Shown: one piece after another, positions 28,895 through 30,742 of the stretch
Layout of the letters: each line of letters begins with the position of its first letter
Position numbering within the stretch: the stretch's first letter is position 1
Source: Escherichia coli
GTDB lineage: Bacteria > Pseudomonadota > Gammaproteobacteria > Enterobacterales > Enterobacteriaceae
DNA: 64,000 nucleotides
Assembly: GCF_024223415.1 (NCBI RefSeq)
Contig: NZ_CP100500.1
Strand: one strand, 5' to 3'
Made by a program: the position numbers and the translations under genes
Notes under the pieces: model-generated
Told to the model about the DNA's origin: nothing
Seen by the model: only the letters and a program-made list of their open reading frames with translations
The model's database searches: none

Positions 28895-30742
28895 ATGAAA
28901 ATGACTTTGCCGTTTAAACCCCATGTGCTGGCACTAATTTGCAGTGCCGGGCTTTGTGCCGCCTCTGCCGGGCTCTATATAAAAAGCCGCACAGTGGAAG
29001 CGCCCGTGGAACCGCAATCGACACAACTGGCTGTGTCTGACGCTGCCGCGGTTACGCTTCCTGCAACGGTTTCCGCACCTCCCGTAACACCCGCCGTCGT
29101 CAAATCCGCATTCAGCACTGCACAAATAGATCAATGGGTCGCGCCCGTCGCGCTGTATCCCGACGCCCTACTTTCGCAGGTGCTGATGGCATCAACCTAT
29201 CCGACAAACGTTGCTCAAGCAGTGCAATGGTCGCACGATAATCCACTTAAACAAGGCGATGCTGCTATTCAGGCGGTATCTGACCAGCCGTGGGACGCTA
29301 GCGTCAAATCACTGGTGGCCTTTCCACAATTGATGGCGTTGATGGGCGAAAACCCGCAATGGGTGCAAAACCTGGGCGATGCTTTTCTGGCGCAGCCGCA
29401 GGACGTGATGGACTCGGTACAACGATTGCGGCAACTGGCGCAACAAACCGGCTCGCTGAAGTCATCAACCGAACAGAAAGTTATTACCACAACGAAGAAA
29501 ACTGTACCGGTAACACAGACAGTCACGGCTCCCGTCATACCATCCAATACCGTTTCAACTGCCAACCCCGTCATTACAGAGCCTGCAACAACCGTCATTT
29601 CCATTGAGCCCGCCAATCCTGATGTGGTCTATATTCCCAACTACAACCCAACCGTGGTTTACGGGAACTGGGCCAATACTGCGTATCCGCCGGTTTATCT
29701 GCCACCACCAGCCGGAGAACCGTTTGTTGACAGCTTTGTGCGCGGATTCGGCTATAGCATGGGCGTTGCTACCACGTACGCACTATTCAGCAGCATCGAC
29801 TGGGATGACGACGATCATGACCATCATCATGACGATGATTATCATAACCACGATGGCGGTCATCGTGACGGTAATGGCTGGCAACACAACGGCGACAACA
29901 TCAATATCGACGTCAACAATTTCAACCGTATCACCGGTGAGCATCTTACTGATAAGAATATGGCATGGCGGCACAATCCAAACTACCGTAATGGTGTGCC
30001 CTATCATGATCAGGATATGGCAAAGCGGTTTCATCAAACCGATGTCAACGGCGAAATGAGCGCCACGCAGTTACCTGCCCCAACGCGCGACAGCCAGCGC
30101 CAGGCGGCAGCAAGTCAGTTTCAGCAACGAACACACGCCGCACCAGTCATTACACGAGATACCCAACGTCAGGCAGCGGCACAGCGGTTTAATGAAGCTG
30201 AACACTATGGGAGCTATGACGACTTCCGCGACTTCAGCCGTCGTCAACCACTGACCCAGCAACAAAAGGACGCCGCTCGTCAGCGTTATCAGTCGGCCTC
30301 TCCTGAGCAGCGTCAGGCAGTCCGCGAGAAAATGCAGACTAACCCGCAGAACCAGCAGAGAAGAGAGGCGGCGCGCCAGCGTATTCAGTCAGCCTCGCCT
30401 GAGCAGCGCCAGGCAGTCCGCGAGAAAATGCAGACTAACCCACAGATCCAGCAGCGAAGAGACGCAGCGCGTGAGCGTATTCAGTCAGCCTCGCCTGAGC
30501 AGCGCCAGGTGTTTAAGGAAAAAGTACAGCAGCGCCCACTGAACCAACAGCAACGTGATAACGCCCGCCAGCGTGTTCAATCAGCATCACCTGAACAACG
30601 TCAGGTTTTTCGGGAGAAAGTTCAGGAAAGCCGCCCACAACGTCCAAACGACAGTAACCATACTGCCAGGCTGAATAACGATCAACGGTCAGCAGTACGC
30701 GAACGTCTCTCTGAGCGCGGAGCAAGGCGACTGGAAAGGTAA
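28895..30742 (+). CDS. yacH: DUF3300-family secreted protein with Asp/His-rich tract and C-terminal tandem repeats
   Basis: 615 aa, signal peptide MKMTLPFKPHVLALICSAGLCAASA; DWDDDDHDHHHDDDYHNHDGGHRDG tract; four 32 aa repeats QSASPEQRQ(A/V)(V/F)REK(M/V)Q... Confidence 0.8.
   Translation: MKMTLPFKPHVLALICSAGLCAASAGLYIKSRTVEAPVEPQSTQLAVSDAAAVTLPATVSAPPVTPAVVKSAFSTAQIDQWVAPVALYPDALLSQVLMASTYPTNVAQAVQWSHDNPLKQGDAAIQAVSDQPWDASVKSLVAFPQLMALMGENPQWVQNLGDAFLAQPQDVMDSVQRLRQLAQQTGSLKSSTEQKVITTTKKTVPVTQTVTAPVIPSNTVSTANPVITEPATTVISIEPANPDVVYIPNYNPTVVYGNWANTAYPPVYLPPPAGEPFVDSFVRGFGYSMGVATTYALFSSIDWDDDDHDHHHDDDYHNHDGGHRDGNGWQHNGDNINIDVNNFNRITGEHLTDKNMAWRHNPNYRNGVPYHDQDMAKRFHQTDVNGEMSATQLPAPTRDSQRQAAASQFQQRTHAAPVITRDTQRQAAAQRFNEAEHYGSYDDFRDFSRRQPLTQQQKDAARQRYQSASPEQRQAVREKMQTNPQNQQRREAARQRIQSASPEQRQAVREKMQTNPQIQQRRDAARERIQSASPEQRQVFKEKVQQRPLNQQQRDNARQRVQSASPEQRQVFREKVQESRPQRPNDSNHTARLNNDQRSAVRERLSERGARRLER
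30290..30673 (+). repeat. four tandem 96 bp in-frame repeats within yacH
   Basis: units start at 30290, 30386, 30482, 30578 (cagtc(a/g)gcctc(g/t)cctgagcagcg...), first two nearly identical. Confidence 0.8.

Follow-up and report, generated by a model that had tools for sequence, protein, structure and literature searches.

The yacH gene of Escherichia coli carries a polymorphic coding tandem repeat (a VNTR or minisatellite) whose unit number has changed recently or recurrently, not in one ancient event. The array was found in a window of 64,000 nucleotides, the whole stretch of DNA that was analysed, where positions 30290-30673 are an in-frame tandem array with a period of 96 bp, or 32 amino acids, in the 3' part of yacH. 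We consider it quite probable that the array is a coding minisatellite of 32-residue units in the Arg/Gln-rich tail of YacH, and that it changes by recombination or slippage. A literature search turned up no mention of a yacH repeat or VNTR, and we regard it as a modest, previously undescribed length polymorphism in an envelope gene. It adds one more example of repeats in bacterial envelope proteins that change in frame, and overturns nothing.

The yacH gene and its protein

The gene shares its annotation name with K-12 and other genomes, and it is flanked here by acnB and lpdA in the same order as in K-12. Its features are as follows, with the basis for each in brackets.

28895-30742, + strand: yacH coding sequence, host of the repeat, 615 aa plus stop (ORF list, Pfam DUF3300)
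28895-28969, + strand: N-terminal signal-like or membrane-anchor segment, MKMTLPFKPHVLALICSAGLCAASA (read by eye)
29117-29887, + strand: DUF3300 domain, PF11737 (Pfam); the model does not cover the repeat, aa 466-593
29798-29863, + strand: His/Asp tract DWDDDDHDHHHDDDYHNHDGGH, the second in-frame length-variable tract of YacH (TRF, allele comparison)
30077-30238, + strand: start of the basic tail, non-amplified, with two conserved RDxQRQAA helices (orthologs, AF2)
30239-30289, + strand: upstream half unit of helix-B type, RRQPLTQQQKDAARQRY, which opens the array (TRF start, unit alignment)
30290-30385, + strand: unit 1 (U1), QSASPEQRQAVREKMQTNPQNQQRREAARQRI (TRF, unit alignment)
30386-30481, + strand: unit 2 (U2), ...NPQIQQRRDAARERI (89.6% identical to U1)
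30482-30577, + strand: unit 3 (U3), QSASPEQRQVFKEKVQQRPLNQQQRDNARQRV (68-70% identical to U1/U2)
30578-30673, + strand: unit 4 (U4), QSASPEQRQVFREKVQESRPQRPNDSNHTARL, degenerate (repeat character in the first half alone, QSASPEQRQVFREKVQE)
30674-30739, + strand: conserved C-terminal basic helix, NNDQRSAVRERLSERGARRLER (nearly invariant among Escherichia alleles; AF2)
30755-30783, no strand assigned: hairpin with A-run and T-run flanks in the gap where yacH and lpdA converge (folded as RNA, -15.9 kcal/mol, z=-2.4)

The match to PF11737 spans aa 75-331 and is above the gathering threshold (E=4e-78, 262.4 bits against a cut-off of 25). Read by eye, the N-terminal segment has a basic n-region, a 13-residue hydrophobic core and A-S-A preceding G26, with a putative cleavage between MKMTLPFKPHVLALICSAGLCAASA and G; the full-length AF2 model places a helix at 10-30 at this end of the protein. 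YacH is labelled as predicted 'extracellular', a PSORT-type label, in PMC9600279. Export or secretion of YacH is putative, its basis being the signal-like segment and this label; the literature search found no experiment on its localisation.

Within the His/Asp tract, TRF found a period of 12 at 29805-29839; the length of the tract differs between alleles, and most YacH orthologs have tandem arrays at the same position. The two RDxQRQAA helices at the start of the tail (30086-30121 and 30155-30190) are helices in the AF2 models, and residues R402, Q403 and A405 are invariant in 35 orthologs. In the AF2 model of the tail the NNDQRSAVRERLSERGARRLER region is helix 218-237. A minus-strand ORF at 30513-30725 was rejected as a gene: it is a mechanical ORF, and dN/dS favours the plus-strand frame.

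Units of the array

The array is a head-to-tail repeat far beyond chance similarity. At a lag of 32 amino acids, the mean BLOSUM62 self-similarity was 3.23, against 0.0 +/- 0.18 in 2000 shuffles (z=18). DNA identity at lag 96 was 71%, and it stayed at or below 37% at other in-frame lags except 192, its multiple, where it was 57%. A sub-period of 16+16 amino acids within the unit had no support at lag 16 (z=-0.1) and weak support at lags 15 and 17. TRF reported a period-96 array at 30248-30605 (3.7 copies, 77% matches, score 303) and a tighter core at 30269-30509 (2.5 copies, 88%, score 377). The TRF start falls at 30248 because the array opens with the upstream half unit.

U1 and U2 differ at 10 positions, seven of them synonymous and three non-synonymous, and perfect runs of 32 bp (30314-30345) and 36 bp (30378-30413) recur 96 bp downstream. 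For U4 the DNA identities are 47-54%, and its repeat character is limited to the first 17 residues. An earlier note on this DNA had described four 96-bp repeats at 30290-30673, the first two almost identical and the last two diverged. The array is real and has the period given, but U4 is half degenerate and the array begins with a half unit upstream of that interval; U1 and U2 are close, but with ten differences the wording was generous. The divergence of U3 and U4 is as described.

Copy number across E. coli strains

Megablast was used to compare the region with 5,426 complete E. coli genomes, and the span of each record was compared with the query span. The differences in span are multiples of 96 bp. 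Two samples of 60 rows each (n=120) were drawn at even spacing from the ranked list of about 5,420 matching complete genomes. The numbers of records equal to the query span, shorter by 96 bp and shorter by 192 bp were 33, 25 and 1 in the first sample; in the second they were 33, 21 and 0-1, with 5 rows unresolved. Over the 120 genomes, about 55% have four units, about 40% have three and 1-2% have two. Targeted searches found two units in at least 21 complete genomes, an O121:H19 clade among them, and five units in two complete genomes, W24 and EC100. A five-unit YacH of 648 aa (protein P0004) comes from draft contigs.

The fetched alleles with two to five units encode intact proteins of 553, 585, 604, 615/617 and 649 aa. 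Two, three, four and five units were found on one almost identical haplotype, in strains 2003-3014, tcmA_3, UK_Dog_Liverpool and W24 respectively, so unit gain and loss are recent; outside the extra units, tcmA_3 (three units) and W24 (five units) have a single nucleotide difference in 1,446 bp. The U2 unit type is present in 0 to 3 copies in this allelic series. B2-type alleles are without the U3 type and have a U1/U2-like unit in its place, and three-unit alleles in different backgrounds differ in unit composition. Other tolerated length changes in yacH are a 45-aa duplication and several small indels. All observed length variants are in frame and the array lies inside the coding sequence, far from the promoter; an on/off phase-variable contingency locus was rejected.

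Selection on the repeat peptide

The repeat peptide is under purifying selection, with dN/dS of about 0.1. Between U1 and U2, dN/dS is 0.09, and 29 of the 32 residues are kept at a dS of 0.44. Between alleles, dN/dS of the repeat region is 0.09-0.16, like the remainder of yacH, and it is well under 1 in every segment of the gene. The dS of the repeats (0.26-0.78, compared with about 0.05-0.2 for most flanking segments) may be raised in part by comparing non-orthologous units. The linker of yacH is hyperdivergent, with 73% nucleotide identity between phylogroups.

Predicted structure of the tail

AF2 was used to predict the structure of the tail alone and of full-length YacH. In the tail-only model (pLDDT 66, pTM 0.25), helices of 12-13 and 16 residues alternate, and the full-length model (pLDDT 45) has the same tail helices. 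Two short helices are predicted per unit: helix A, SPEQRQAVREKM, which has an S-P-E-Q N-cap box at its start, and helix B, PQNQQRREAARQRIQS. The pLDDT of the tail is 76-84 over the upstream half unit, U1 and most of U2, and 60-84 over the helices overall. The global confidence is low, and the units may become ordered only on binding, or may fail to pack as hairpins. Neither model had a Foldseek match in the PDB at E<=0.001. The tail has a net charge of +20 and is rich in Q (19.5%) and R (18%), with a net charge of +3 or +4 for each full unit (U1-U3).

The earlier note had suspected a low-complexity tail of variable copy number, and had named an invariant repeat number and an ordinary folded domain as findings that would speak against it. 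Copy number does vary between strains, from two to five units in complete genomes with spans shifted by multiples of 96 bp, and the structure prediction yields helices of low pTM and no Foldseek match rather than an ordinary folded domain. The description as low-complexity captures the biased composition of the tail but leaves out its purifying selection and its predicted helices.

Orthologs and similar proteins

All 38 YacH orthologs examined have an R/Q-rich helical tail, and two motifs, RDAARQR-IQSA and QRQAA, can be followed from Escherichia as far as a Bordetella-like homolog. Like the E. coli protein, Enterobacteriaceae orthologs have a signal-like segment, DUF3300, a His/Asp tract and then an R/Q-rich tail that contains QRQAA helices and ends in a ...EQRSAxRE...R helix. 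The other Enterobacteriaceae differ in their amplified helical unit, which measures 18-19 aa (54-60 bp) and occurs in 2-4 copies, or is lacking. At the same site, the amplified period is 96 bp in Escherichia, 102 bp in AST85, 57 bp in UBA5654, and 54-60 bp in Citrobacter, Enterobacter, RIT691 and others. Among the orthologs examined, the two-helix array of 32 aa was found in Escherichia only. At this position, other enterobacterial genera amplified 18-19-aa helix units of their own.

Neither the tail nor the repeat by itself had a Pfam or NCBIfam match above threshold, the best matches being RskA_N (E=0.03) and DUF3106 (E=0.28), and a sequence-profile search of the PDB with an alignment of 35 orthologs gave nothing at E<0.5. 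A HMMER search with the tail as query, covering 1.84 billion representatives, gave 23 matches, mostly enterobacterial YacH fragments or frame-shifted fragments; the others are a few unrelated xPEQRQ-repeat proteins. DUF3106 (PF11304) resembles the YacH tail in having a repeated helix that opens with [S/T]-P-E-Q-R-Q and continues as a basic, Gln-rich helix, but its units are shorter and contain Trp. Membership was rejected, at 12.1 bits (E=0.28) for the repeat and 8.2 bits for the whole tail against a cut-off of 24.3. Hhalign of the tail with a DUF3106 member, P0142 (Pfam E=5e-8), gave a suggestive 95.8% probability with 39% identity over 61 columns, a value that is not database-corrected and comes from compositionally biased sequence; P0142 also weakly matches Metal_resist.

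CpxP, Spy and ZraP are likewise periplasmic helical proteins with helices that start with an L-T-x-x-Q cap, but they form a single cradle-shaped dimer domain, whereas YacH has a tandem array appended to DUF3300. Membership in LTXXQ (PF07813) or Metal_resist (PF13801) was rejected, with no tail match at E<=10 and no Foldseek match to Spy or CpxP. A MotB/ZorB-like OmpA-domain protein, P0134, has a periplasmic linker of eight tandem 40-aa LTPEQRQEIREGG... (LTPEQRQ) units that aligns with the YacH tail at 32% identity (E=5e-9). Its unit is acidic and, instead of forming the C-terminus, connects a membrane anchor to a peptidoglycan-binding domain; the protein is otherwise unrelated. P0134 and a DUF3106 member count as periplasmic analogues of the YacH motif.

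The repeat region of tolA domain II is reportedly a coding VNTR in an E. coli envelope gene (Zhou et al., Res Microbiol, 2012). VNTRs of the tolA type and MLVA loci are like yacH in their in-frame head-to-tail units, helical charged sequence and strain-variable copy number with the frame kept, presumably as a result of slippage or unequal recombination. Unlike tolA, yacH has a much longer unit (96 bp, two helices) in few copies (2-5), and is Arg/Gln-rich, not Lys/Ala/Glu-rich.

A mobile-element origin was rejected: the 'plasmid' matches of yacH are chromosomal records of 0.4-4.9 Mb, and phage collections gave weak matches of partial coverage, at about 41% identity, to a Salmonella contig of 290 kb and an unannotated phage record of 3.4 kb.

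Proposed mechanism and alternatives

Units would be gained and lost by unequal homologous recombination or replication slippage. The substrates would be neighbouring units, which share perfect blocks of 32-36 bp here and are identical over the whole 96 bp in other alleles. Each event would add or remove one helix pair and leave the frame intact, because the period is a multiple of three. The tail would be exported via the N-terminal signal-like segment and then act as an extended polycationic helical spacer in the periplasm; alternatively, it may be a polyvalent binding arm for an anionic envelope partner, with unit number setting its length and charge. This role as a spacer or binding arm is the weakest step of the proposal and is offered tentatively, as a possibility we ourselves find doubtful. 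The deletion mutant of yacH is more resistant to protamine (PMC9600279), which has no obvious fit with a simple polycation-shield model.

An assembly or alignment artefact, in which repeats are collapsed or expanded or BLAST joins separate pieces, is very unlikely. Identical 96-bp units can collapse in short-read assemblies, and the 648-aa P0004 comes from drafts; however, every genome counted is at the 'complete genome' level, SNPs between units anchor them, and the fetched loci give intact proteins with exactly 2, 3, 4 or 5 units. The length classes also recur in many independent assemblies and whole clades such as O121:H19, and the two complete genomes with five units are unrelated. The variation may be neutral, with the tail a biased, dispensable linker whose copy number drifts in recombinogenic DNA without selection on length. 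Several S. Typhimurium strains carry yacH as a pseudogene (PMC3391293), S. Typhimurium lineages have lost it (PMC3391293, PMC10048834), and an insertion disrupts it in E. coli E69; whatever YacH does is therefore dispensable, and copy number may be selectively neutral. Intact genes tolerate 2-5 units and many in-frame indels, no Pfam or NCBIfam family matches the tail significantly, relatives of its sequence are few outside enterics, and the AF2 pTM of the tail is low. Drift in a mere spacer fits poorly with a repeat dN/dS near 0.1, with the residues kept between U1 and U2 despite their dS, with motifs that persist as far as the Bordetella-like homolog, and with a helical tail in all 38 orthologs examined. 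We consider neutrality possible, but improbable.

Two further explanations give the variation or the tail a specific function, and both seem to us distinctly unlikely. If YacH were surface-exposed or released, immune or phage selection could favour change. One core gene does hold three variable segments (the repeats, the His/Asp tract and the divergent linker), and PMC9600279 predicts YacH to be 'extracellular'. Such diversifying variation, antigenic or phage-driven, is opposed by a dN/dS well under 1 throughout, repeats included; moreover, unit changes copy existing sequence and create no new epitopes, and no phage or plasmid association was found. The xSPEQ-capped helices could instead be tandem hairpins of the LTXXQ type, a CpxP/Spy-like chaperone or adaptor that binds unfolded envelope proteins or acts in Cpx signalling. 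CpxR regulation of yacH has been reported (PMC9600279), [A/L]-[S/T]-P-E-Q-R-Q resembles the LTXXQ helix cap, the hhalign match links the tail to a DUF3106 member that itself weakly matches Metal_resist, and a TPEQRQ-repeat protein weakly matches an NCBIfam CpxP model, below its cut-off. Yet the likeness is confined to a common helix-capping motif and biased sequence: the tail has no LTXXQ or Metal_resist match, falls well below the DUF3106 cut-off and shows no Spy/CpxP-like fold by Foldseek.

For the coding minisatellite that we prefer, a bolder reading is that the repeat and the His/Asp tract together are a tuning knob and not neutral variation, in which helix pairs of charge +3 to +4, gained or lost step by step, alter the reach or the strength with which the polycationic periplasmic arm engages an anionic envelope component. 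We think this unlikely. If it were true, unit number would affect Cpx envelope-stress signalling or how susceptible cells are to cationic antimicrobial peptides. Lineages would settle on differing unit numbers, and the amplified helix units of other enterobacterial genera would be independent arrivals at the same solution.

The array offers a first concrete handle on YacH, a conserved uncharacterised enterobacterial envelope protein, whose tail is built of selectable helix-pair modules that shift in number on short evolutionary time scales. It could serve as a size marker for strain typing (2-5 x 96 bp), and short-read assemblies may mis-state the length of the gene. The natural allelic series suits tests of the effect of tail length and charge on the reported Cpx and protamine phenotypes.

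The yacH/lpdA intergenic region

Rfam gave only sub-threshold, terminator-like matches over 28500-31000, and an RNA element was rejected as the cause of the repeat. The hairpin at 30755-30783 was not reported by the terminator scan. It is terminator-like in its fold and in its A-run and T-run flanks, and may be a bidirectional terminator serving the convergent yacH and lpdA.

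The yacH locus and its repeat array

The window carries acnB (minus strand), yacH (plus strand), lpdA and aceF, an order annotated identically in K-12 MG1655 and other genomes. Within YacH (615 aa), Pfam matches a sole family, DUF3300 (aa 75-331, E=4e-78), and the repeats lie beyond it.

28895-30742, plus: yacH, ORF, 615 aa, DUF3300
30239-30289, plus: upstream half unit, directly before U1, RRQPLTQQQKDAARQRY
30290-30673, plus: flagged repeat interval, YacH aa 466-593, beyond DUF3300
30290-30385, plus: U1, QSASPEQRQAVREKMQTNPQNQQRREAARQRI
30386-30481, plus: U2, QSASPEQRQAVREKMQTNPQIQQRRDAARERI
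30482-30577, plus: U3, QSASPEQRQVFKEKVQQRPLNQQQRDNARQRV
30578-30673, plus: U4, QSASPEQRQVFREKVQESRPQRPNDSNHTARL

The 96-bp tandem array that the earlier note described in the C-terminal part of yacH is real. TRF places a period-96 array (3.7 copies, 77% matches) at 30248-30605 and a tighter 2.5-copy core (88%) at 30269-30509, and the protein's lag-32 self-similarity is 18 standard deviations over shuffles. Of the four units proposed, U1 to U3 stand, but U4 is repeat-like in its first half only, and the half unit that precedes U1 has to be added, which is why the TRF array starts earlier. U1 and U2, described as almost identical, share 89.6% of their DNA, somewhat less than that wording implies; the last two units are indeed diverged, with U3 68-70% identical to U1/U2 and U4 47-54% identical. 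Perfect runs at 30314-30345 (32 bp) and 30378-30413 (36 bp) reappear exactly 96 bp downstream.

Copy-number variation in E. coli

A 751-bp query over the array found a match in 5,425 of 5,426 complete genomes. Unit class was read from the matched record span in 60 evenly spaced rows: 33 spanned 751 bp or the equivalent, 25 were 96 bp shorter, one was 192 bp shorter and one was a divergent allele. In a second sample, for which the K-12 allele served as query, 33 rows had four units and 21 had three; there were also five unresolved alignments of B2-type alleles (the allele type of strains such as Nissle and CUVET19-1704) and one possible two-unit allele. A two-unit query recovered at least 21 two-unit genomes, an O121:H19 clade among them, and two complete genomes (W24, EC100) have five units, as a synthetic five-unit query matched them end to end in one piece. 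Fetched loci have intact translations with two (553 aa), three (585 aa), four (604, 615 and 617 aa) and five units (649 aa). The suggestion that copy number may vary between strains is therefore borne out by the comparison of complete genomes, and extended to a range of two to five units and to a 2/3/4/5-unit series on a single haplotype (2003-3014, tcmA_3, UK_Dog_Liverpool and W24). Because, with the extra units set aside, a single nucleotide in 1,446 bp separates tcmA_3 from W24, unit gain and loss are recent relative to point mutation.

Three-unit alleles vary in make-up, some being without the U1 type and B2 strains such as Nissle without the U3 type, and some four-unit alleles have a U1/2-like unit at the usual U3 position. 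Both observations point to events that recurred and to conversion among units. Further in-frame tail variants are a 45-aa duplication (APVITRDTQRQAAAQRFNEAEHYGSYDDFHDFSRRQPLTQQQKDA) in proteins P0001/P0002 (662 aa), which occurs on contigs as long as 4.85 Mb, a 17-aa duplication within unit 3, and IQQR gained or lost inside a unit; proteins P0098 (634 aa) and P0107 (621 aa) and locus L048 (581 aa) also have such variants. A phase-variation locus was considered and rejected, since every length variant stays in frame.

Selection and composition

U1 and U2 differ by 7 synonymous and 3 non-synonymous changes (dN/dS 0.09, dS 0.44), so the duplication is old and its peptide has been kept. Between alleles, the repeat region has a dN/dS of 0.09-0.16, similar to the DUF3300 domain, and an elevated dS of 0.26-0.78, to which comparison of non-orthologous units may contribute. 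By these estimates the region is under constraint, and the earlier label "low-complexity" fits its biased composition but not the idea of mere filler. Gln makes up 19.5% and Arg 18% of the tail (aa 395-615), whose net charge is +20; aa 236-315, which extend as far as the first part of the His/Asp tract, have a net charge of -12.

Predicted structure and relatives of the tail

AlphaFold2 was used to predict the full-length protein from a 35-ortholog alignment; the model is poor (pLDDT 45), with helices placed along the tail. A tail-only model from 14 Escherichia alleles has a mean pLDDT of 66 and a pTM of 0.25, with pLDDT rising to 76-84 from the upstream half unit through U1 and over most of U2, and shows strict alternation of 12-13- and 16-residue helices, SPEQRQAVREKM and PQNQQRREAARQRIQS. 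With neither model did Foldseek find a similar PDB structure, and searching the PDB by sequence profile gave no match. Given the helix pLDDT, the pTM and the lack of a PDB match, the predicted secondary structure is reasonably supported and a defined tertiary fold is not.

Among 38 loci from GTDB species representatives, Enterobacteriaceae YacH has a signal-like N-terminus, DUF3300, a His/Asp tract and an R/Q-rich tail, in which two RDxQRQAA helices are conserved and the terminal helix is EQRSAxRE...R. Among the loci examined, only those of Escherichia (E. coli, E. whittamii and two other species) were found to have the 32-aa array. Strain AST85 (NZ_AP043644.1) has 34-aa (102-bp) units in a YacH about 72% identical to the window's, with a longer N-terminal linker and a different pre-repeat segment; despite its E. 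coli label, the strain is probably a member of a divergent Escherichia lineage. Other genera have arrays of their own 18-19-aa units at the same position: for example, Citrobacter, Enterobacter and others carry 2-3 copies of NPTAQQQQRRENAKSHLQ (54-60 bp), and UBA5654 repeats TPEQRQARRENVQQRVSxS with a period of 57 bp and a 95% match. A homolog in a Bordetella-like MAG (L046) has RDAARQRAQSA repeats; directly after its DUF3300 gene lies a DUF2950 gene (3937-4839, Pfam E=2e-105), which is absent beside E. coli yacH.

When HMMER compared the tail with 1.84 billion representatives, it gave only 23 matches, mostly enteric YacH fragments. The rest were unrelated xPEQRQ-helix proteins: a DUF3106 member, a secreted PERR/PEQR-repeat protein and a MotB/ZorB-like protein. 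The YacH unit resembles the first two periplasmic helix-cap repeats in pairwise hhalign (95.8%, 39% identity over 61 columns, and 92%, 52% over 50 columns, respectively), scores that are not database-corrected and come from compositionally biased sequences. In the third (P0134, 494 aa, metagenomic, OmpA-domain), eight 40-aa LTPEQRQEIREGGVPVDPQRLETLEDAERALSR (LTPEQRQ) units, nearly identical to each other, make up the periplasmic linker, so that xPEQRQ helix repeats serve independently here as a periplasmic spacer. Membership of DUF3106 was rejected for the YacH repeat (12.1 bits vs a 24.3 cut-off), and profile comparison places it in no curated family.

A literature search did not find a description of the yacH repeat, and little has been published on the gene. 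It shows CpxR-dependent regulation and repression by protamine, and its deletion raises protamine survival (PMC9600279, where repression by cecropin A is also cited); it is down-regulated in a rob mutant (PMC7537768), and its knock-out modestly increases recombinant protein yield (PMC7376861).

Explanation and alternatives

The array is a minisatellite that lies in frame, is selectively maintained, varies in copy number and encodes the paired helices of a basic tail. The allelic series, together with perfect identities over 32-36 bp (or over whole units), leads us to infer that unit number would change through slippage or unequal recombination, each step adding or removing one helix pair. The signal-like N-terminus, composition and periplasmic analogues suggest that the tail may serve in the periplasm as a polycationic helical spacer or binding arm, its length and charge tracking unit number; this is the weakest step of the explanation.

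The most serious competitor is a neutral spacer, which has perhaps a one-in-three claim at best: two to five units occur in intact genes, but the low dN/dS in the repeats speaks against it. Diversifying surface variation is improbable; alleles do differ in unit number and make-up, but dN/dS stays low. We consider a CpxP/Spy-like module equally doubtful, with CpxR-dependent regulation on one side and, on the other, no match of LTXXQ or Metal_resist to the tail even at E<=10. That assembly artefacts produced the length classes is very hard to believe, with these classes found in complete genomes. The maintained minisatellite adds a fresh case, in a gene that is uncharacterised, to a phenomenon already well known; it is no surprise to a specialist, and is useful as a marker and as a way into YacH function.

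Other variable parts of the locus

The His/Asp tract (DWDDDDHDHHHDDDYHNHDGGH, 29798-29863, aa 302-323) is a second in-frame length-variable tract; relative to K-12 it is 2 aa shorter in the window, 8 aa longer in Nissle, 13 aa shorter in UK_Dog_Liverpool and 7 aa shorter in protein P0102, and most enterobacterial orthologs have TRF arrays of period 12-27 at its position. An 8-bp deletion in this tract makes yacH a pseudogene in several S. Typhimurium strains (PMC3391293, PMC10048834), among them UK-1, 14028s, SL1344 and D23580 (PMC3391293).

A Thr/Pro/Val-rich linker (29465-29599, aa 191-235) has 73% nucleotide identity to B2-type alleles (Nissle, CUVET19-1704), with dS about 1.0 and dN/dS about 0.18, whereas flanking DUF3300 segments are 93-96% identical; it represents either a long-standing split between alleles or the import of a segment into a core gene. 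In E. coli E69 (CP089930.1; locus L014, about 3598-4366), an insertion of ~770 bp breaks yacH after ~nt 1100, and the ORF stops at 392 aa; the two homology blocks share an 8-bp overlap that looks like the target-site duplication of an IS element.

Nine PLSDB "plasmid" records with yacH (CP099174.1, NZ_OL790696.1, NZ_CP134663.1 and others; 0.4-4.9 Mb, non-mobilizable) are most likely chromosomal, whole or in part, and were misfiled as plasmids.

Between convergent yacH and lpdA, a GC hairpin (30755-30783, GCGGC-7 nt-GCCGC), its stem extended by flanking A and T runs (-15.9 kcal/mol, z=-2.4), looks like a shared bidirectional terminator; a consensus terminator scan did not report it. The yacH-lpdA spacer is 70 bp in the window vs 241 bp in B2-type strains (Nissle 1917, L003 2098-2338), and in one of these, CUVET19-1704, it contains an IS621 (IS110-family) transposase gene (L009 2472-3452).
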